Positions 22,977-62,815 of a stretch of DNA of 64,000 nucleotides are shown piece after piece. This DNA comes from an uncultured Thalassospiraceae bacterium (GTDB lineage: Bacteria; Pseudomonadota; Alphaproteobacteria; Rhodospirillales; 2-02-FULL-58-16): the NCBI GenBank assembly GCA_964632795.1, contig CAZWEZ010000005.1, positions 314-64,313 on the forward strand, read 5' to 3'. The notes beneath the pieces were generated by a model. The model was given only the letters and a program-made list of their open reading frames with translations. It was not told the DNA's origin and searched no databases. The position numbers and the translations under genes are program-made. Each line of letters begins with the position of its first letter. The stretch's first letter is position 1.

Positions 22977-23160
22977 GGCAATAATACCAGCGGCCAGAGA
23001 CACTGACCTGCGGGTATCCTTCGACACGCGAGCTTCGCTCGCTGCTCAGGATGAGGCATCTCTTTATTTTTCAACAAAAACCTCATCCTGAGCAGCCGCG
23101 CAAGCGGCGTGTCGAAGGATGGTCGGGGGAGTCAGTGATTATGGCCGCTGGTATAATACC
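22977..23160. repeat. 184-bp imperfect palindromic element (long hairpin / MITE-like)
   Basis: The arms pair block-wise. ataccagcggcca, cactgac and atccttcgacacg pair with their complements. A perfect 16-bp inner stem pairs gctgctcaggatgagg (23041-23056) with cctcatcctgagcagc (23081-23096) around a 24-nt AT-rich loop. Confidence 0.7.
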
Positions 23161-29526: not shown

Positions 29527-30222
29527 CTAACCGGCGTCGTTGCCCAGGCAGTAGCGTTGCAGGTCGGCGATGTCGTGGAGTTCGACCTGGTGGCCGTGGG
29601 TGGAGACGCCGTATTTCCTGAGCTTGGCCAGGGCCCGCGAAAGGCTTTCCGGTTTCATCCCCAGGCGGGCGGCGACCAGGGTCTTGTCGTAGGGGAGCCG
29701 GACCACCGCCTTGCCGTCCTTGGCGCCGCTGAGCTCGAGCAGGAACTCGCCCAGGCGCTGGGGCGTCGAGCGGGCCTGCAACTGTTCGATATGCAGGACC
29801 AGCCCCCGGAGCCTGAGCGACAGCGAGCCTATCATCTTGAGGCACAGATCGCCGTCCCGGCGCAGCAGGGAGAGGAACGCCGCCGCCGGGATCTCCAGCA
29901 ACCGGGCGTCTTCCACCACCTCGGCGCTGGCCGGGAAGTCCTTGCCCAGGAAGATCGCCGCCTCGGCCACGGTCTCCCCGGGCTTGAGGATGGCGATCAC
30001 CGTCTGCTCGCCCTCGGCGGTGTCGCGGAATATCTTCAGCCAGCCCGCGAGCAGCAGGTAGAAGCGGTCGGCGGGCTCGCCGCGCACGAACAGCAGCTTG
30101 CCCCGGGGGCATTCGATGACCCGCGCCTCGGCGAACAGGCTGCCCAGGACGTCCTCGGCCAGACCCGCGAACATCGGCGCGTTGCGGACGACCTTCAAGT
30201 CCTTGGCGTCGAACGACTTCAT
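29527..30222 (-). CDS. Crp/Fnr-family regulator, Dnr/NnrR-type (no N-terminal Cys cluster)
   Basis: There is a cNMP-binding-like fold (RGEPADRFYLLLAGWLKIF) and an HTH with the E--SR recognition motif (MKPESLSRALAKL). The FNR-type N-terminal Cys cluster is absent. The start is CAT 30220-30222. Confidence 0.9.
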   Translation of the reverse strand: MKSFDAKDLKVVRNAPMFAGLAEDVLGSLFAEARVIECPRGKLLFVRGEPADRFYLLLAGWLKIFRDTAEGEQTVIAILKPGETVAEAAIFLGKDFPASAEVVEDARLLEIPAAAFLSLLRRDGDLCLKMIGSLSLRLRGLVLHIEQLQARSTPQRLGEFLLELSGAKDGKAVVRLPYDKTLVAARLGMKPESLSRALAKLRKYGVSTHGHQVELHDIADLQRYCLGNDAG

Positions 30223-30287: not shown

Positions 30288-31127
30288 CTACAAGGAGAAT
30301 TGCATCTCGATGTCGGCCAGGCCGGCCTTGGCTCCCTGGGGCACGTGGTAGGGCGGACGCTGGCCCAGATAGAGGATGCCCAGGTTGAACCCGTCGTCGC
30401 CCATCAGGCGCTTGCCGGCCCGCTCCGGGTCGCTGGTCGGTTCGACCGGCGCCTTGCGGACGGCGTTCTTCCAATCGCGCTGTTCGGGGCGGTAGGTCAC
30501 GCACGGGGTCAGAATCTGGATGAACGAGAAACCGGGATGGCGGACCGCATCGACGATCAGCTTGGCGACGCCGTTGGGATCGCCGGAGAAGCCGCGGGCG
30601 ATGAAGTTGGCGCCCGCCGCCAGGGCCACGCCCAGGGGCTGGAACGGATTGATCCCGGTGCCGTGCGGGGTCAGCTTGCTGCCTTCCCACTCGGGCGCGG
30701 TGGTCGGCGAGGCCTGGCCCTTGGTCATCCCGTAGACCTGGTTGTCCATGACGATGTAGGTCAGGTCGACGTTGCGCCGGCAGGCGTGGAGGAAGTGGTT
30801 GCCGCCGATCGAGAAGCCGTCGCCGTCGCCCCCCGTGACCAGCACCGTCAGTTCGGGCCGGGCCAGCTTGAGGCCGGCGGCCAGGGCCAGCGAACGGCCG
30901 TGGACGCCGTGGAACCCGTAGACGTTGGTGTAGGCGGGGATGCGCGACGAACAGCCGATCCCCGAGATCACCGCCGCCTCCTCGCGGCCGATACCCAGCA
31001 CCGACAACGCCTTGGTGATCGAGGACAGGACCGAGAAATCGCCGCATCCGGGACACCAGATGGGCTTGTATTCGGACTTGAAGTCCTTGGCGGTGAGGGA
31101 TTGGGTTTGCGGTGAGGCTTTTTCCAT
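30288..31127 (-). CDS. korB: 2-oxoacid:ferredoxin oxidoreductase beta (TPP-binding) subunit
   Basis: Motifs are WCPGCGDFSVL, GGDGDGFSIGGNHF and MDNQVYGMTKGQ. The 2-oxoglutarate specificity implied by the symbol is not proven. Confidence 0.9.
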   Translation of the reverse strand: MEKASPQTQSLTAKDFKSEYKPIWCPGCGDFSVLSSITKALSVLGIGREEAAVISGIGCSSRIPAYTNVYGFHGVHGRSLALAAGLKLARPELTVLVTGGDGDGFSIGGNHFLHACRRNVDLTYIVMDNQVYGMTKGQASPTTAPEWEGSKLTPHGTGINPFQPLGVALAAGANFIARGFSGDPNGVAKLIVDAVRHPGFSFIQILTPCVTYRPEQRDWKNAVRKAPVEPTSDPERAGKRLMGDDGFNLGILYLGQRPPYHVPQGAKAGLADIEMQFSL

Positions 31128-31132
31128 CCGAT

Positions 31133-32866
31133 TCAGCTCCAGTTGACCAGCGCCTCGAGGACCTGCCCCGGGCGGATCGGCAGGGGTCCCGGCTGGTTGA
31201 AGACCTTGACCTCGGCGGGCAGGTCGTAGTGGGCCCGCAGGTAGCGGAAAAACTGCCGGGAGTGGCTCTGCTCGACCACCAGCACCCGCTCGACGCCCTC
31301 GATCGCCGCCTGGAAGCGCTCGACCTGGGCCGGAGCCAACAGGCGCATCGAGACCAGCCGGGCGTCGAGGCCCTGGTCGCGGGCCCGGTCCCGGGCCTCC
31401 CGTGACGGCCCGGTGGAGGACCCCCAGGTGACGATGGCCACCTCGCCGTCCCCCGAAACGTCGGCCCAGTGGTCGCCGTAGTCGTGGTTGTCCAGCTTGC
31501 GCTGGCGCTTCTCAAGCTGCTCCAGGTGATCCTCGGACTGGCTGGACGGCCTGCCGTTGGGGGTGTGCTCGAGGCCGTCGGCGACGTATTCGCCGCCCGG
31601 CGTCCCGGGGATCGCCATCGGCGAGACTCCCGAATCGGTCACCGCGTAGCGGCGGTAGCCGGTGACCCCGGCGGCGGCGATTTCGCGCTTGCCCGCGAAG
31701 GCGAGGTCCGCCGGACGCTCGAAGACCGTCCGCGTCTGGCCCAGCGACTGGTCGGTGAGGAAGATGGCCGGGGTCTGCAGGACCTCTGCCAGATGCACCG
31801 ACCAGTGGGCGGTGAACAGGCAGTCCTCGACCGAATTCGCCGCCGTCACCAGGTGCGGGGCGTCGCCGTGCAGGCCGTACAGGGCGATGTTGAGGTCGCT
31901 CTGTTCCGACTTGGTCGGAATCCCGGTCGACGGGCCGCCGCGCATCACGTTGACGATGACCACCGGAACCTCCGAGGCCACCGCCAGGCCGATGCTCTCC
32001 ATCATCAGGGCCAGTCCCGGGCCCGAGGTGGCGGTCAGCGACGGCACGCCGCCGAAGGAACCGCCGATGATCATGTTGATCGAGGCCAGCTCGTCCTCGG
32101 CCTGGACCAGGACGCCGCCCAGCTTCTCGAGGTTGGGGGCCAGCCATTCCAGGACTTCGGTGGCCGGGGTGATGGGATAGGCGGCGACGAACCGCAGGCC
32201 GCCCCTGATGGCGCCGAGACCGGTGGCTTCGTTGCCGCTGATGTTCCAGCGTTCTCCATCGAGGGTCGAGGCGGGTACCTTGAACGAACACCGGACCCCC
32301 GATTCCCCGAGCGCCGCGCTGCCGGCGCGGATACAGACGATACCGGACTCGACGGCCTCCCTGCCCTTCCTCCCGAGCGCCTTGTCCAGGGTCGCGGCCA
32401 TGGTTTCCAGCGGCAACCCGATCAACGCCGCGACGGCGCCCAGGCCGATCATGTTGGGCCTTCCCCCGGGGATCTCCTTGGCCATCTTCTTGAGCGGTAT
32501 TTCGACGATCCTGGCCCCGGTCGAGGTGATCACCTCGGGCACCTCGCCGGCCGCCGGGTCGCAGATCACCAGGCTGCCGCCATCCAGGGGAAGCTCGGCG
32601 GCGAAGCGTTCGATGTTGGCCCAGTCGAAGGCGACGTGGATCTCGTAGGTGTCGTCCTGGGACATCACCGGGCGGGTGCCGAGGCGGATGTAGGCCGCCG
32701 ATTCGCCGCCCCGGATCTGGGGACCGGCGGCGCGCGCCATCTGGCCGAAGAGGCCGGCCGCGGCGGCGGTCTCGAGAAGGATCTGGCCGGCCGTCACGAC
32801 GCCGGCCCCGCCGGCGCCGGTCATGGCGATGGTTACCGTCTCGGGCGGCGTTCGCTCAACAGCCAT
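31133..32866 (-). CDS. korA: 2-oxoacid:ferredoxin oxidoreductase alpha subunit (fused gamma-alpha type)
   Basis: The start MAVERTPPETVTIAMTGAGGAGVVTAG is at CAT 32864-32866, with an alternative 10 codons upstream. The gene sits 5 nt upstream of korB. Confidence 0.9.
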   Translation of the reverse strand: MAVERTPPETVTIAMTGAGGAGVVTAGQILLETAAAAGLFGQMARAAGPQIRGGESAAYIRLGTRPVMSQDDTYEIHVAFDWANIERFAAELPLDGGSLVICDPAAGEVPEVITSTGARIVEIPLKKMAKEIPGGRPNMIGLGAVAALIGLPLETMAATLDKALGRKGREAVESGIVCIRAGSAALGESGVRCSFKVPASTLDGERWNISGNEATGLGAIRGGLRFVAAYPITPATEVLEWLAPNLEKLGGVLVQAEDELASINMIIGGSFGGVPSLTATSGPGLALMMESIGLAVASEVPVVIVNVMRGGPSTGIPTKSEQSDLNIALYGLHGDAPHLVTAANSVEDCLFTAHWSVHLAEVLQTPAIFLTDQSLGQTRTVFERPADLAFAGKREIAAAGVTGYRRYAVTDSGVSPMAIPGTPGGEYVADGLEHTPNGRPSSQSEDHLEQLEKRQRKLDNHDYGDHWADVSGDGEVAIVTWGSSTGPSREARDRARDQGLDARLVSMRLLAPAQVERFQAAIEGVERVLVVEQSHSRQFFRYLRAHYDLPAEVKVFNQPGPLPIRPGQVLEALVNWS

Positions 32867-32970
32867 CCCTTCGCATTCTCCTCTCGACGCATACATGTTC
32901 GACCCCGGCGTGTCCGTGGACCGGGATATCCCGGTCCATGGGCACGCTGGTCACACCATCTATGAAGTTA

Positions 32971-33297
32971 ATACCAAGGTTCCTATGTATTGACCCTCTG
33001 TGATCGCTTTTCCCGTCCTCCCGGCAGGAGGCGGTGCGCCGGCGATGCGGTGCCATCGTCAAGCGCCGCCGACGCCCCGGGAGGGCGGGAAAAGCGACCC
33101 TCCGGGCGGCTTTCCGAGGCCCCTGGGGGCCGCGCGGGGGCGTCCCCCACATTTGGAATCGGGGGGACACCCCCCGGGGGCCCCCCGGGCTGCGTTGCGG
33201 GCCGCTTGTGATGCGCCGGCATCACGGCGCGACCCGCGCCTGGCCGGATGACCTCGCGACGCCGTCACAGAGGGTCAATACATAGGAACCTTGGTAT
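32971..33297. repeat. 327-bp element bounded by perfect 33-bp terminal inverted repeats (MITE-like / highly structured)
   Basis: ataccaaggttcctatgtattgaccctctgtga (32971-33003) is the exact reverse complement of 33265-33297. A nested 21-bp stem pairs 33004-33024 with 33077-33097 (20/21). The interior is very GC-rich with G/C homopolymer runs and shows no credible coding frame. Confidence 0.85.
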
Positions 33298-33427
33298 GAG
33301 CGCATGATCGGCCGTGTCCGGCACTCGCAGTCTGCCTGTGGCCCTAAAGCTCCGATGTCCCTAACTTAATCGTCCGGGACGATTTGGCAACAGTAAAAAA
33401 GGCTTTTTCCTACCCGAAAGGGGGGGG

Positions 33428-37024
<3,597 letters not shown>

Positions 37025-37316
37025 TGCCGGAGTTCCTTTTCTGCTTGCCGGGAAAGACTTCCGCCGGCCCCGCGAAACGGGCCGGCGAGGTTTTCGCATG
37101 ATATCATATCGCGGCGCGGAATTGAGCGCGAAAATAAGAGAAGGACGCCCGTGCGGCAAGCCCAAAAGGAACGACTCCATGGCTGAACAATTGAAACGCG
37201 TCTCATAAGTCAAAGAAAACTCAAGTCACCAGCTGAACGAACTTCAGGCAATGAAATCAGTGCTAACCACACTGGTCTAACACGTGGCCATCGCTATGGC
37301 ATGGCAGGATCAGGCA

Positions 37317-40300
37317 TTATTTTTTATTAGGCGGCTTGCTGGAACGAGTCTTCTTGCGGGTAGGCCGTTTCGTTTTACTGGTTAAATGGCCATCCACCAT
37401 CGTCAGTCCAAGGCGGGAAGCCTCTTTTTCTCTGAACCGCGAAATCAGACCAAAGTCGGCCATCGTTAACTCTGTCACTGGAGCTTTTAAAGCGTTTGGT
37501 AGATCAGGGATTTCGTTCCAGCCATGCTGATAATTATTAAAAGAGTCAAGGGAAGTTAAGGTGTGACAGATGGCATCTCTCACAAAACTAGTCAAGTTCT
37601 CTATCCTTGAAGCCAAAATTGGGATATCGCCATCATTGAAAGCGGTGATGACTTTAACGATCCATCCACCGACTGGATGTTCGAGGGAAATGATGGCGAC
37701 ATGTTCTAACAAACCGACTCTGGAATATTTGAATGCAAATGTCGTAGAACGAGGTAATTTCTCAGCAATATATATCGGTTTATTGTTCTTAGTTCGTATT
37801 ATTGAAGATGTGTGATCTTGCTTTTGCCAGTAAATTGCCAGATAAATCTCGTCGATCCATTCGATTTTTTGAATCTGTCGATCAGAAAATAGTTTTTTCG
37901 TGAATTTTTCACACATTCTGAGACGGTCATCTGGATTTATCGCCGCCTCGATAGCTTTGAACAATCTATCATCGGTCTTGCCAAGATTTTTTGGAGATTC
38001 GAAAAATATTAAGTCATGAAGCCCTTCTTGCCTTGAGTCTAATATCTCCACAACCACCGAAATTTCACAAGCCTGTTGCAGAGAAATCAGTTTTCTTTTA
38101 CCGCGCCTTACAATCGGTACAGTCTTCGGTTGGGCAACCCAAAAGTCTTCGATATCAAAAATCTCCGAAAGACGCTGTTTATAAGCCCAACCATCCTGGC
38201 CCTTAGCTATTGCCGTCACAGATAAATGGTTTGAAAGTATATCCACCCACCGATCAGTCACAACACTGGGATCGAATTGCACTCGTGGTGTATAGTGCAT
38301 GTAGTCAATCGAACGACGCGACAATGGTGGTCTAAACGTGTCATCACGGATGTCAATTCTATGAATCTTATTGCCTTTGTAACCTACAAAACCTCCCAAA
38401 TGCATGACAACTCCATGGAAATACAGCATAGCTTTCGGTATTTCTGGGCTTTCTACCTGCGGAAAATCTATTTTATAATAGTAAATATAGTTGTTAATTT
38501 TGCTCCAATCTTCATTACCAGACGCATCTACGTGACAAAGAACATATAAATCACCCTCTATACCGCACCATTCTTGATTTTTTTTAACTACGGGAAAGGA
38601 CTTAAGAACAAACCGACAGTCTTTCGTGCGAATATCTTCGACATCGAAGGTAAACTCTTCGCCTCTTTCCGCTGTGATCTCACAGACCTGCCCAAAATCG
38701 TCGACTTCGATCGTGAATTCGACACGCCGGCACAATTCGCGGACATAGGCCGTCAATTGTCCGGAATTGAGGGCGCTGTCGGGTCTTAGCAGAACCTCGA
38801 TCCGGGTTCCTGGCTCCGTGCGGTCGCCATCTTCGACCACTAAATAACCACGGGGACCGTTGAGAGTAAGTTTAACCGGGTTATCACCCGATTCGGAGGA
38901 CGGTTTGAAGGTCTCAACGGTAACATGGTTCGATACGCCGAATACGGACAGAAAACCGACCCCAAATCGACTAGTCGGGGTAAAGGCGTAACGTTGGCGG
39001 AAGTCTTCCGTCGTGTAATATGATAGGCCGATCTGAAGCAGATGGTGCGATATCACCTGCTCGTCCATGCCGATCCCACAGTCATCAATCACAAGGACTC
39101 GCTGTTCCTCACCATTTCCATTTCCGTCGGTTTCACCGGAACCGCCCGTAATCGAAAGGCGAAGGCGATATCTTTCTCTGACTTCAGCGGGAACCAGTGT
39201 CGGAGACCGTGGCGTTGGTTTACCGGCTTCCTTCAAGTCCTCGTACATCCGGCATCGCATGGCATCCAAGGCGTTCTGAATGAGTTCGCGCACAAAATCC
39301 TTCTCATCTTCGTAGGCATCGAAGATAAGCCGGTTCATCACTTCGGTTTCATCCAGTTGAAATCGCCAATCTTTGATTTGGTATGTTGCGTCAGGCGCTG
39401 AAACGATCTTGATGGTTGGATCGCTACCAGCCATCCGCGCTACCGGAGGTTCCCACACTTTTCGCTCGCTTGGATCGGCAAGCAAATTCGGGATGGCTTC
39501 CACTTCGTTCACGATCCATTGACACCAATCCCGAAGAACCCGGTGTTCCTCCGGATTGCCACATTCCGCATTAACTTCGATTTTCTCCGGCGTCACGGCT
39601 CGATGGCTTATGCTCCGATATTTGGTCCAATGTGCATAACTGTCGTCCGGCAAGGGACAGGCGGCATTCAATAGAAGCGGGCAGGCCCGGTCGGTCCCCA
39701 TGTCGAGCAGGTCGCCCAACCGAAGCAAAATCGCCATAAGCCTGGTATTGACGTTCTCGCCACGTATCTGGGTAAGGATGGGAAACCGAGTCCGGTCATC
39801 GAGTCCATCCGGTGGGAGCCCATGCGCGATGCATACGTTCGCGATGGTCCTTTCCAATTGCGGATCATCGTAGGCGAAACGACCAAGGGCGGATTGATGT
39901 TGGGAAATGACGTCTCCGGCACGCTCATGATGACGCCGACGAACGAAGTCCGCGATCATGAAACGGACTTCCCTATCGGCGATGAAATTTCTTATGACTT
40001 GATTGTCAGGCTCATCACTGTCTCGCATTTCCTTGATTTCGCGCCAGCGCTGTGTACCGCCACCGTCCTGTCCGGTCCATTTTTTCCAGCCGTCAGATTC
40101 CAGGATTTTCTGTTTTTCCTCGTCGGAAGCAACCATACCGCTGTCGTGAAGGTAGGCAGCGACAATAAGAATATAGACTTCGACGGAAGAGAGATTGACG
40201 GTAGGAGTTAGCGAATCGGGAGGGAAAAGCAGATGTGATAGCTGCGTAATTATTGCTTCGCTATGGCCTATTGTGTGTCGGGTGTAATGCGGAAAGGTCT

Positions 40301-40421
40301 CGGGAATATATTCAAGCCATCCTTTAATCACTTCCCGTTGTTCGTCAATCTTTCCGTAGTAGGCTTTATCTTTCTCTACGAGAAAGCGAAATAAGGCCGT
40401 GTCAGTGATCTCGCTAACCAT
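37317..40421 (-). CDS. 1034-aa HD-domain + GHKL (Hsp90/MORC/sacsin-like) ATPase protein with unassigned C-terminal half
   Basis: The HD signature is HTIGH (aa 49-53) plus LHD (aa 91-93, nt ~40143-40151). The Bergerat-fold boxes are ELIQNALD (nt 39264-39287), DDCGIGM (39066-39086) and SRFGVGF (38952-38972). There is a Lys/Arg-rich tail. GC is low: a hand count of line 38401-38460 gives 27/60, against 47/60 in nifJ line 36001-36060. Confidence 0.8.
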   Translation of the reverse strand: MVSEITDTALFRFLVEKDKAYYGKIDEQREVIKGWLEYIPETFPHYTRHTIGHSEAIITQLSHLLFPPDSLTPTVNLSSVEVYILIVAAYLHDSGMVASDEEKQKILESDGWKKWTGQDGGGTQRWREIKEMRDSDEPDNQVIRNFIADREVRFMIADFVRRRHHERAGDVISQHQSALGRFAYDDPQLERTIANVCIAHGLPPDGLDDRTRFPILTQIRGENVNTRLMAILLRLGDLLDMGTDRACPLLLNAACPLPDDSYAHWTKYRSISHRAVTPEKIEVNAECGNPEEHRVLRDWCQWIVNEVEAIPNLLADPSERKVWEPPVARMAGSDPTIKIVSAPDATYQIKDWRFQLDETEVMNRLIFDAYEDEKDFVRELIQNALDAMRCRMYEDLKEAGKPTPRSPTLVPAEVRERYRLRLSITGGSGETDGNGNGEEQRVLVIDDCGIGMDEQVISHHLLQIGLSYYTTEDFRQRYAFTPTSRFGVGFLSVFGVSNHVTVETFKPSSESGDNPVKLTLNGPRGYLVVEDGDRTEPGTRIEVLLRPDSALNSGQLTAYVRELCRRVEFTIEVDDFGQVCEITAERGEEFTFDVEDIRTKDCRFVLKSFPVVKKNQEWCGIEGDLYVLCHVDASGNEDWSKINNYIYYYKIDFPQVESPEIPKAMLYFHGVVMHLGGFVGYKGNKIHRIDIRDDTFRPPLSRRSIDYMHYTPRVQFDPSVVTDRWVDILSNHLSVTAIAKGQDGWAYKQRLSEIFDIEDFWVAQPKTVPIVRRGKRKLISLQQACEISVVVEILDSRQEGLHDLIFFESPKNLGKTDDRLFKAIEAAINPDDRLRMCEKFTKKLFSDRQIQKIEWIDEIYLAIYWQKQDHTSSIIRTKNNKPIYIAEKLPRSTTFAFKYSRVGLLEHVAIISLEHPVGGWIVKVITAFNDGDIPILASRIENLTSFVRDAICHTLTSLDSFNNYQHGWNEIPDLPNALKAPVTELTMADFGLISRFREKEASRLGLTMVDGHLTSKTKRPTRKKTRSSKPPNKK

Positions 40422-47194: not shown

Positions 47195-47277
47195 TGTGGA
47201 CGGCTCCCACCACCGGCATCGCGATGTGCCACACTGCGGGATCTGTTAAAGAACCGCTAGAATGGGAGCCGTCCACA
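47195..47277. repeat. Perfect 15-bp inverted repeat separated by 53 nt
   Basis: tgtggacggctccca (47195-47209) pairs with tgggagccgtccaca (47263-47277). It lies in the intergenic region between the deacetylase-like gene and a LysR remnant. Confidence 0.6.
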
Positions 47278-51490: not shown

Positions 51491-52662
<1,172 letters not shown>

Positions 52663-60534: not shown

Positions 60535-61476
60535 TCACTTTGAAATTCTTTTGTAAGGCCCGCGTTTCCTGGGCTCCGGGGCATCATCATCGACCAGCTT
60601 CACGATGTCCTCCATTGACCACAACGTGCTCGTGATGCCAGCCGCCATCGCGGGGGAAGTCTTAACGGCGCTGTTGATCCTAGCAAAGTTGTACCAGACC
60701 GTATAGAGCGCCACCATGTGACAGTGGTTCTCAAATTTCTTGCTGTGGGCATTGGTCAGCCGCGTGAAGCGGCGCATGTGCATCCGCATTGAGAGGTTCT
60801 GGCGCTCGACGTAAGACGTTGAAACGTGCTTAGGGTCGGGCTTCCCCTCAAACCGTTCCTTGCGGGCTCCTACACACCTACCAGAGCTATAGCGGGCTTC
60901 CGGGGTGCTAGATTTATGGGCAACCCCATACAGCTTGATAAGCTGGGCAAAATCAACGTCGGCCCCAAATGCCCCTTCAACAGCGTCCAGGTAGGGGTTA
61001 TGGCCATCGGTCGTAAGCTGGACCCGGTTGGCAAGCCTTGAAGCCACGTCCTGCATGAACTCGTTTGCGTACTCGGCATCCCGACCGCCGACCAGCCAGC
61101 CGACGATCAGCTTGCTATCGGCATCTAAGGCCGTCCAGGTCCACACGTCGCCAGCGCCGTCAGGAGCCTTCTTTGCAGTCGGGACGTTCTTGGCCTTGGC
61201 GTAACAGAAGCTCCAAATTTCGTCGCACTGGACGCGCTGCGCTCTGACCCCGCGCACATTGTCGTCATGGAACCGCGCACAGACCAGCCCGGCATCCACC
61301 AGCAGCTTTGTCACGGTGTTGATCGACACGTCCACCACGCGGCTGATAGATCGCATAGAAGACCCCTCGCAGAGCATGGAGAGGATTTGGACGCGCTTCT
61401 CGGGGGGCAATTTGTTCATGCCCACATTATATGAACTTATATGCTTGGCGTCAAGTAGTTTTTTCAGTTCACGCAA
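60535..61476 (-). CDS. IS1-family-like DDE transposase (single ORF with N-terminal HTH)
   Basis: The sequence is MNKLPPEKRVQILSMLCEGSSMRSISRVVDVSINTVTKLL...VQCDEIWSFCYAKAKNV...WTWTALDADSKLIVGWLVGGRD...YVERQNLSMRMHMRRFTRLTNAHSKK. This resembles the IS1-type D..E.W / W.w.a.d / G.R pattern by recollection. The likely start is MNKL at 61419. The stop codon lies inside the left IR. Confidence 0.7.
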   Translation of the reverse strand: MRELKKLLDAKHISSYNVGMNKLPPEKRVQILSMLCEGSSMRSISRVVDVSINTVTKLLVDAGLVCARFHDDNVRGVRAQRVQCDEIWSFCYAKAKNVPTAKKAPDGAGDVWTWTALDADSKLIVGWLVGGRDAEYANEFMQDVASRLANRVQLTTDGHNPYLDAVEGAFGADVDFAQLIKLYGVAHKSSTPEARYSSGRCVGARKERFEGKPDPKHVSTSYVERQNLSMRMHMRRFTRLTNAHSKKFENHCHMVALYTVWYNFARINSAVKTSPAMAAGITSTLWSMEDIVKLVDDDAPEPRKRGPYKRISK

Positions 61477-61579: not shown

Positions 61580-62815
61580 ATGGCAAGACCGAAAGACGAT
61601 GAAGGTTGGTTGGCGCTTCGACATGAGGTTAACGAGGCGTTCAGCCCGGGTTCTCCTATTAGGGCACTCACGGAATTGGCGGGGCGCACAGAACAACGTC
61701 AGCGTCTCTGCGATATCATGCTCAGAGCGGGCGAGCATGCAATAATTTTCGGAGAGCGTGGCGTAGGCAAAACCTCACTTGCCCGAACATTTCACGCGAT
61801 CCTAAATACGGACACGCGTCAAGTTCAAGAATGTCCCATCAATTGCGTGGAAGCGGATACATATACAGCTCTTTGGCGGAGAGTTTTCAAGAGGCTTGGC
61901 TATAAAGGAGATAACGCCAGCATCGACCAGCATTACAATGAGGAAATTACACCAGATGACGTTCTTTTAGAACTTGACCGCTTTTCTTTGAATGACATGC
62001 CTATTATAATATTTGATGAATTTGATCGTCTTTCTGCTGAAGAAGCAAAGAACTTAATGACTGACACAGTTAAGTTGTTATCAGACGATCGATCCCACGC
62101 AAAACTCTTATTTGTTGGCATTGCCGATGATGTTAGTGAACTTATCAGCCGGCATAGATCTCTTTCGAGAAACCTGAAACAAGTTCATATGCCGCGACTA
62201 AGTCTTAACGAAGCGGAAGGAATAGTTAGAATAAGATTAAAAAAATGTGGGATGAGTATTGAAGATGACGCTTCTTTCCAGATTGCCTTTCTGTCACGCG
62301 GGCTTCCCTACTTTTCTCACTTAGTTGGGCAGTATGCTGCGTTGAGCGCGATCAACAATTTGCACATGAATGTTACCGAGGCCGATGTTTTTACTGGCTT
62401 GGAGACGGCATTACAAGATGTGGATCAAACAATTACAGAAGCCTATTTGAAGGCGGTTGTTAGTCAACGCCCGGATGAAACCCTCTATGAACCGGTTCTA
62501 ATAGCTTGTGCGCTCGCTGATCCAGACGAATTGGGCAGATTCCAGCAGACCGCAGTAACCGATCCATTGTCCGAAATAATCCCAAGGACCCCCCTCTACA
62601 CACCAAGCACGTTCGCATTTCACATGAACAAGTTTTGCGACAACAAGCGCGGCCAAATTCTTACAAAAACTGGGGAAGCGAGAAACTATAGATATTATTT
62701 TACTGATCCAATGATGCAGCCTTATATAATACTGCGCGCGCTGGAAGCGAAAAGAATAAGCAATGAGATGCTTGAGCGGTTTATTGCTCGGCGTCAACGG
62801 CGGCTTTCCATCTAG
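61580..62815 (+). CDS. AAA+ (ORC/Cdc6- or TniB-like) P-loop ATPase, 411 aa
   Basis: Walker A is GERGVGKTS and Walker B is IIIFDEFD. A sensor-like FVGIADD is present. The C-terminal ~150 aa are possibly winged-helix. Confidence 0.8.
   Translation: MARPKDDEGWLALRHEVNEAFSPGSPIRALTELAGRTEQRQRLCDIMLRAGEHAIIFGERGVGKTSLARTFHAILNTDTRQVQECPINCVEADTYTALWRRVFKRLGYKGDNASIDQHYNEEITPDDVLLELDRFSLNDMPIIIFDEFDRLSAEEAKNLMTDTVKLLSDDRSHAKLLFVGIADDVSELISRHRSLSRNLKQVHMPRLSLNEAEGIVRIRLKKCGMSIEDDASFQIAFLSRGLPYFSHLVGQYAALSAINNLHMNVTEADVFTGLETALQDVDQTITEAYLKAVVSQRPDETLYEPVLIACALADPDELGRFQQTAVTDPLSEIIPRTPLYTPSTFAFHMNKFCDNKRGQILTKTGEARNYRYYFTDPMMQPYIILRALEAKRISNEMLERFIARRQRRLSI

Follow-up and report, generated by a model that had tools for sequence, protein, structure and literature searches.

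What kind of sequence is the 327-bp element that lies between nifJ and the korAB genes of an uncultured Rhodospirillales-like bacterium, and how did it come to lie there? It begins and ends with the same 33 nucleotides in opposite orientation and separates two transcription units of central metabolism. We analysed the element within a 64-kb stretch of DNA, hereafter called the window, and compared it with assemblies, genomes, plasmids, metagenomes and curated families. Our results indicate that the element is a genuine sequence feature. Most plausibly it is a MITE-like foldback insertion, an orphan within a class of elements that is already known.

The preliminary description had placed the element between the KOR and PFOR units, with nifJ upstream and korAB downstream, and analysis of the gene families confirmed this arrangement. 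On the minus strand, nifJ (33428-37024) encodes pyruvate:ferredoxin oxidoreductase (PFOR; TIGR02176, 1789 bits), with a start at 37024 that agrees with the protein on record. The alpha subunit of a 2-oxoacid:acceptor oxidoreductase is encoded by korA (31133-32866, minus strand; TIGR03710, 562 bits), and the beta subunit by korB, downstream on the same strand (30288-31127). For korA an alternative ATG exists at 32896, and the gene call of a relative strain begins at the second Met. Read along the coding strand, the order is thus the nifJ stop codon, a flank of 130 nt, the 327-bp element, a flank of 104 nt and korA; without the element, the nifJ-korA spacer measures 234 bp. Downstream of korB follow a gene for an FtrB/FixK-like regulator of the Crp family (29527-30222) and an NnrS gene.

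Two other genes of the window deserve mention. Directly upstream of nifJ lies a gene for a protein of 1034 aa (37317-40421, minus strand), with a GC3 of 0.49 versus about 0.9 in its neighbours. It matches Pfam HD-CE and, weakly, HATPase_c_3, and PADLOC weakly assigns it to part of a DRT model (RT_UG24). The gene gives the impression of having been acquired horizontally and is possibly related to defence. At 51491-52573 (minus strand) an N6/N4 DNA methyltransferase with a C-terminal RAMA domain is encoded. Its best PADLOC match is the 'orphan methyltransferase' model (590 bits), and it presumably resembles the CcrM-type cell-cycle methylase of alphaproteobacteria.

The terminal repeat itself is exact. 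The sequence ATACCAAGGTTCCTATGTATTGACCCTCTGTGA on the plus strand at 32971-33003, the korA-proximal arm, recurs as its reverse complement at 33265-33297, the nifJ-proximal arm, with 33 of 33 positions matching and no mismatch. That these repeats are perfect and beyond chance had been proposed before and was borne out: not one of 100 dinucleotide shuffles of the window contained a match, even when as many as three mismatches were tolerated. It is also the longest and strongest inverted repeat in the window. Its outer edge is abrupt, the adjoining bases outside being unpaired, and its inner edge is sharp as well. Complementarity drops to about 52% in the 36 nt that follow on the inside, the level expected by chance at such GC content, and arms of 69 nt taken whole reach 75%. 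By arithmetic, the centre-to-centre spacing of 294 bp corresponds to about 28 helical turns, and the arms enclose a core of 261 bp. The composition agrees with the earlier observation of AT-richer ends and a very GC-rich core: arms and flanks together have about 56% GC and the core 73-80%, while the 33-bp arm alone has 42% compared with about 70% for the host genome. In the korA-proximal arm the outer 20 nt form a weak dyad, ATACCAAGG-TT-CCTATGTAT. With four flank bases counted, this 13-2-13 dyad pairs at 10 of 13 positions, a value that 9 of 500 shuffles reach; the nifJ-proximal arm and its own flank are without a comparable dyad.

Hairpins or inverted repeats are present in other spacers of the window, namely at 23041-23096 (16 bp, perfect), at 47195-47277 (15 bp, perfect, with a loop of 53 nt) and at 37032-37172 upstream of nifJ (19 bp with two mismatches). 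None of these three shows sequence kinship with the element.

Between the arms, three separate hairpin domains can be distinguished. Domain A (33004-33097) folds into a 21-bp stem with a second GC-rich stem-loop inside it. Pairing of 33004-33024 with 33077-33097 at 20 of 21 positions was found exactly as first described, and the sole non-Watson-Crick position reads as G-U on the plus strand and as A-C on the minus strand. Domain B (33121-33189) is a long imperfect hairpin with arms of 33 nt (33121-33153 and 33157-33189) that are 79% complementary. Its runs of G5-6 and C5-6 surround the only AT-rich patch of the core (ACATTTGGAAT). The earlier account had entered this domain only as G/C runs; these are indeed present at 33161-33189, in the right arm of the hairpin. 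Domain C (33191-33262) includes the 7-bp stem of the small hairpin GTGATGC-GCCG-GCATCAC, likewise reported before, at 33209-33226. Folded as single-stranded nucleic acid, the complete element reaches -252 kcal/mol (plus strand) or -242 kcal/mol (minus strand), at z = -10.9 to -12.2. With the outer stem removed, the 261-nt core still yields z = -6.2 on the plus and z = -4.7 on the minus strand relative to shuffles. Its predicted energies are -180.5 kcal/mol on the plus strand, which is antisense to both genes, versus -172.4 kcal/mol on the minus strand.

A perfect inverted repeat may also be made by an assembler, and a local mis-assembly or fold-back had been named in the preliminary description as the finding that would refute the element. 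We consider this unlikely, as independent assemblies break where a real repeat boundary predicts. The exact KorA protein is also encoded by L001, a Logan contig of run SRR8799001, and a KorA with 96% protein and 98.2% DNA identity by three further Logan contigs (L082, L083 and L084; runs ERR10503215, ERR10503212 and ERR10503104). L001, L082 and L083 all start at one base, 30 nt inside the outer end of the korA-proximal arm, and the outermost 30 nt of this arm (32971-33000) are identical in these three contigs and the window. Logan assemblies are de Bruijn graphs with k=31. A contig of this kind is expected to start k-1 bases before the end of a repeat when a reverse complement or other copy of at least 31 nt in the same sample diverges after ...GGTAT. 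The shared break therefore shows that the repeat and its outer boundary are real in at least three independent data sets and two strains. With its 33 nt the repeat is longer than k=31, and Logan graphs are the same for both orientations of the core and blind to copy number.

What speaks for a fold-back or a chimeric inverted join is that the inner junctions and the core were seen only in the window's own contig. Against such an artefact stand the position of the element in the middle of a contig of 69,570 bp, the conserved nifJ-korAB synteny around it, and the common start of Logan contigs from three runs 30 nt short of the repeat's outer end, the signature of a real repeat at k=31. We therefore regard an artefact as exceedingly improbable. 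Residues 899-1198 of NifJ, its last 300 aa, yielded no near-identical fragment in Logan when used as a query for the nifJ-side junction; the nifJ contig in Logan ends within the conserved TPP motif.

The fourth Logan contig, L084 (ERR10503104), starts 4 nt inside the repeat (GTAT/TAAC), unlike the 30 nt of the other three. This start fits neither of the empty sites predicted below for TA and AT, and it may result from low coverage or from a SNP in the repeat. Comparison of korA (31133-32866) with the homologous gene of the relative strain (L082:135-1868) revealed differences at 31 of 1734 nt that lead to 22 amino-acid changes (codon positions 14/6/11), an unusually high non-synonymous share for a core metabolic enzyme.

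We then considered which signals surround the element. The nifJ-side flank (33298-33427, minus strand, 130 nt) is without a canonical intrinsic terminator. It contains a perfect 8-1-8 palindrome at 33368-33384, AATCGTCC-G-GGACGATT, which may be a protein-binding site. In the korA-side flank (32867-32970, minus strand, 104 nt) a TATTAA box straddles the junction between repeat and flank, and a GGAG Shine-Dalgarno sequence is present. The korA leader also bears a near-perfect palindrome of 46 bp (32905-32950) that is centred on GATATC and lies 40-85 nt before the start codon. No U-tract stands behind it, and the GGAG sequence comes after it; the palindrome may act as an operator or as a hairpin that stabilises the 5' end. 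Relative to strain L082 this flank shows two substitutions in 104 nt, one of which (A to G in the 98%-identical strain) improves the palindrome.

A simple scan of the minus strand of the nifJ-korA spacer detected neither a sigma-70-like promoter nor a terminator made of a hairpin plus T-run, and the core lacked a sigma-70-like promoter and a hairpin followed by a T-run on both strands. None of the hairpins of the element is followed by a U-tract. Neither the scanner nor inspection by eye revealed a convincing sigma-70 or sigma-54 promoter in the repeat and flanks, and by eye no FixK/FNR box (TTGA-N6-TCAA) or CRP box (TGTGA-N6-TCACA) was found in the arms.

Loci retrieved from genomes and metagenomes by means of KorA all encoded proteins of at most 69% amino-acid identity, and their spacers could not be aligned with the one studied here. 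Three of these loci (L009, L011 and L014) share the nifJ-korA order, with spacers of 350-430 bp. Right after nifJ they carry a textbook intrinsic terminator (L009:9520-9600, L011:3680-3740, L014:9606-9670), followed by an AT-rich promoter region, and no long inverted repeat was found in these three spacers. L009 belongs to a Rhodospirillales MAG with 63% KorA identity. At L009:9521-9533 its nifJ stop codon is followed by ATACCAAGGT, which is the same as the outer 10 nt of the repeat; this identity is probably due to chance.

The search for further copies and homologues that had been suggested to identify the element gave none in the window, GTDB genomes, JGI metagenomes, IMG/VR, PLSDB or the loci of relatives. 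Within the 64-kb window the repeat has no second copy, and the arms of the hairpins are likewise unrepeated there. The 22-mer CCAAGGTTCCTATGTATTGACC from the middle of the arm had no exact match in 185,579 GTDB species genomes (one genome each), JGI metagenomes and IMG/VR. Against the 72,556 plasmids of PLSDB, blastn with the element and with the arm alone returned no match even at E<=10. When repeat and spacer were compared with 165 loci (2.1 Mb) by blastn and fuzzy search, only chance-level matches appeared, and 160 loci that encode KorA relatives showed no similarity to the spacer or arm. Neither the GTDB representatives nor the JGI metagenomes contain the host species, and among about 5.8 billion protein clusters the next KorA after the 96% strain is only 69% identical. 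Judged by these protein comparisons, the host apparently is an isolated Rhodospirillales-like lineage without sampled genus-level relatives. Our literature search found no papers on the run accessions or the terminal repeat sequence.

The element does not appear to code for protein, as had been stated before. Open reading frames of 69-104 aa overlap it, but their translations are off-frame junk rich in P, G, R and A without any match among 5.8 billion protein clusters. A six-frame chimeric protein query of the spacer, meant to reveal spurious ORF calls over other copies or a flipped version, also had no match in about 5.8 billion clusters, and the protein cluster search revealed no remnant of a known transposase in the core. 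The Rfam search, proposed as a check on the RNA candidates, matched the element to no curated family. At permissive settings (Rfam 15, E<=10, positions 32000-34500) the only match was to a mammalian lncRNA model with 16 bits and E=5.3, and in the whole window nothing reached a gathering score.

The preliminary description had offered a MITE, a structured non-coding RNA and a protein-binding cruciform as candidates. From this menu the anatomy fits a MITE-like foldback best, although the single copy and the lack of a parent transposase and of any homologue in the collections searched tell against it. Our preferred reading, held tentatively, is that the element may be a non-autonomous, transposon-derived insertion that possibly targeted TA. 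In favour of it, the element is non-coding, its terminal inverted repeats are sharp, perfect and richer in AT than the host with its 70% GC, and their outermost bases leave room for a hidden duplication of TA or AT. None of the relatives with the nifJ-korA order carries it in the corresponding spacer, and the same outer boundary is found in three independent assemblies and two strains. Both the whole element and its core fold strongly, and the spacer holds no canonical terminator or sigma-70 promoter. With 327 bp it is below the approximate limit of 600 bp for MITEs, and it contains no transposase ORF between its 33/33 terminal repeats. Against a MITE-like origin, only one copy is visible within 64 kb and no transposase with matching ends was seen; terminal repeats shared with an autonomous IS were found neither in PLSDB, IMG/VR, GTDB genomes and JGI metagenomes nor at the IS-like gene of the window. 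The core bears no trace of a known transposase, and its GC content exceeds that of the host, an unusual property for DNA derived from an IS.

This IS-like gene was tried as a possible parent and rejected, as the flanks of 60535-61476 share nothing with the repeat. It is a degenerate IS1-like transposase ORF on the minus strand, for which every family match is below the curated cut-off. A gene for an AAA/STAND-type ATPase (61580-62815, plus strand) adjoins it, and no clear terminal repeats were found around the two.

Target-site duplications require a closer look. No direct repeat of at least 3 bp flanks the element, and the earlier statement that none is obvious holds for such lengths, yet a hidden 2-bp duplication of TA or AT is conceivable. 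The outermost bases of the repeat are ATA...TAT, and because of this a palindromic 2-bp duplication is indistinguishable from an extension of the repeat. The candidate TA duplication would be 32972-32973 with its partner at 33295-33296, leaving an element proper of 32974-33294 (CCAAGG...CCTTGG); alternatively, AT at 32971-72 and 33296-97 could be the duplicated pair. Elements of the IS630/Tc1-mariner type and their MITEs characteristically duplicate TA.

A possible course of events can be drawn from these features. An ancestral element would have inserted into the nifJ-korAB spacer of one uncultured Rhodospirillales-like lineage, where it would now be fixed. Insertion at TA (or AT) with duplication would give the element proper of 32974-33294 terminal repeats of 30 bp that begin with CCAAGGTT, as in IS630/Tc1-mariner elements; this sequence may loosely resemble mariner-type ends. 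On the minus strand the rebuilt empty site would read CTCA-TA-TTAAC, or ...GCGCTCA-TA-TTAACTTC... on a fuller reading. It would hold a -10-like TATTAA box 18 nt downstream of CGGACA. The pair TATTAA / CGGACA-N18 could have been a korAB promoter, at a place where the scanner calls none, and the insertion may have split or rebuilt this old promoter, so that the -10 box now lies directly beside the element.

Any transcript across the element, whether read-through from nifJ or a korAB leader, would form a perfect helix of 33 bp that caps three GC-rich hairpins. Long perfect helices are typical substrates of RNase III and block 3'-exonucleases. The likely present-day effect would be that the nifJ and korAB messages are separated or differently stabilised. 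The element would have an obvious job to do, as no canonical terminator was found between nifJ and korAB, unlike in the relatives, and it is a reasonable inference that it may insulate or co-regulate the two units, as the preliminary description had suggested.

Could the same features have arisen on the spot? In this alternative a cis-acting structure, an RNA super-hairpin or a DNA cruciform, would have evolved in place by inverted duplication or template switching and been kept for ending or processing nifJ read-through and for setting korAB mRNA stability. The core folds more strongly than expected from its composition (z = -6.2 and -4.7), and nifJ lacks the canonical terminator that is present in relatives. 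Long perfect hairpins in other spacers of the window show that the genome uses such structures, and the element is single-copy as far as visible. Yet 33 of 33 Watson-Crick pairs without any G-U and with a knife-sharp edge point to an origin at the DNA level and not to selection at the RNA level, and the AT-rich arms look foreign. The fold is also somewhat better on the antisense plus strand than on the mRNA strand, no U-tract stands behind the hairpins, and no Rfam family matches. We judge local evolution to be rather unlikely. A plain intrinsic terminator, a hairpin followed by a U-tract, was not found on the minus strand between nifJ and korA, where relatives have one, and for a palindromic REP/REPIN unit of 20-25 nt repeated many times in extragenic DNA neither the hairpin arms nor the repeat recur within 64 kb.

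An inverton would explain the sharp edges differently: the 33-bp repeats would be crossover sites of a recombinase encoded elsewhere, and flipping of the 261-bp core would switch the expression of korAB or of nifJ read-through. Inverted repeats do flank a short segment beside a gene here, directly upstream of an operon; the size and repeat length are typical, perfect repeats with sharp edges are what recombination would maintain, and a long target-site duplication is missing. The 13-2-13 dyad at the korA-proximal arm and flank (10/13; 9/500 shuffles) is loosely like a recombinase core, but it is missing at the other arm. Moreover, no tyrosine or serine recombinase domain was detected among the 36 predicted proteins scanned in the 64-kb window, and the core contains no promoter- or terminator-like signal in either orientation and hence no payload to switch. 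Such a switch is improbable in our view. Paired operators, two identical 33-bp sites 294 bp apart that one regulator binds to loop the DNA, would account for the AT-richer, operator-like arms and for the spacing by an integral number of turns, and a Crp/Fnr-family gene is near at hand just downstream of korB (29527-30222). However, the arms carry no FixK/FNR or CRP box, an exact identity of 33 bp is far beyond what operators need, and the arrangement is absent in relatives, which makes this explanation highly improbable. A broader proposal is that the element is a working device, be it an inverton or an 'insulator' hairpin processed by RNase III, which switches or uncouples PFOR and KOR and is the founder of an undescribed repeat family that lacks sequence relatives in current databases; we give it little credence.

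A likeness of ACCAAGGTT to the centre of the Hin hix site was also considered and rejected, the dyad symmetry there being only 5/12. The best dyad near this sequence is centred 5 bp further in, and in one arm only.

If the element is indeed a MITE-like insertion, it is another small mobile element between two transcription units of central metabolism, and it may have rewired the promoter, the terminator and the mRNA processing of its neighbours. It is of local interest, as it belongs to an uncultured lineage with a nearest KorA relative of 69% identity. To a specialist the element as known is not surprising, and its location is the main interest. More weight would fall on it if reads showed inversion, which would amount to phase-variable control of KOR in an alphaproteobacterium, or if the 33-bp helix were a processing site that sets the ratio of PFOR to KOR. 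Neither outcome is likely enough for a high rank.

Among known systems, the MITE-like reading places the element closest to the IS630/Tc1-mariner-type MITEs, such as the Correia elements of Neisseria, cyanobacterial Nezha and pneumococcal RUP, which are small, non-coding and intergenic as well. Elements of this type have terminal inverted repeats of 25-35 bp, with a TA insertion that looks like part of the repeat. When transcribed, these MITEs form long hairpins that RNase III cuts, and promoters can arise from their ends or be destroyed by them. Families of this type comprise tens to hundreds of copies and have a recognisable parent IS. In contrast, the element described here has one copy and no parent in the data searched, carries a GC-rich core of three separate hairpins, and is without sequence similarity to anything in the collections searched.

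Invertons such as fimS, hin, the Bacteroides PSA promoters and C. difficile cwpV and flgB share with it a length of 150-350 bp, perfect or near-perfect inverted repeats of about 10-35 bp, a position upstream of an operon and the lack of a long target duplication, whereas here no recombinase is found within 64 kb and no promoter or terminator in the core. REP/REPIN/BIME- and RIME-type palindromes of proteobacteria resemble it in that imperfect, GC-rich hairpins lie between co-oriented genes, and hairpin A, with arms of 21 nt and a spacer of 52 nt, has REPIN-like dimensions. These palindromes, however, occur in many copies per genome, in contrast to the lack of recurrence within 64 kb, and the AT-rich outer repeat of 33 bp has no counterpart in the REP/REPIN/BIME/RIME families. 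Like the intercistronic stabilising hairpins, for example that of the Rhodobacter puf operon, and like the processing stems of RNase III, the element is a long GC-rich structure between co-oriented genes, and a perfect duplex of at least 20 bp is a typical RNase III substrate. Yet known structures of these kinds are tens of nt long, contain G-U pairs and mismatches and are shared by related organisms, whereas the element between nifJ and korAB is lineage-specific, spans 327 nt and is closed by a perfect stem of 33 bp.
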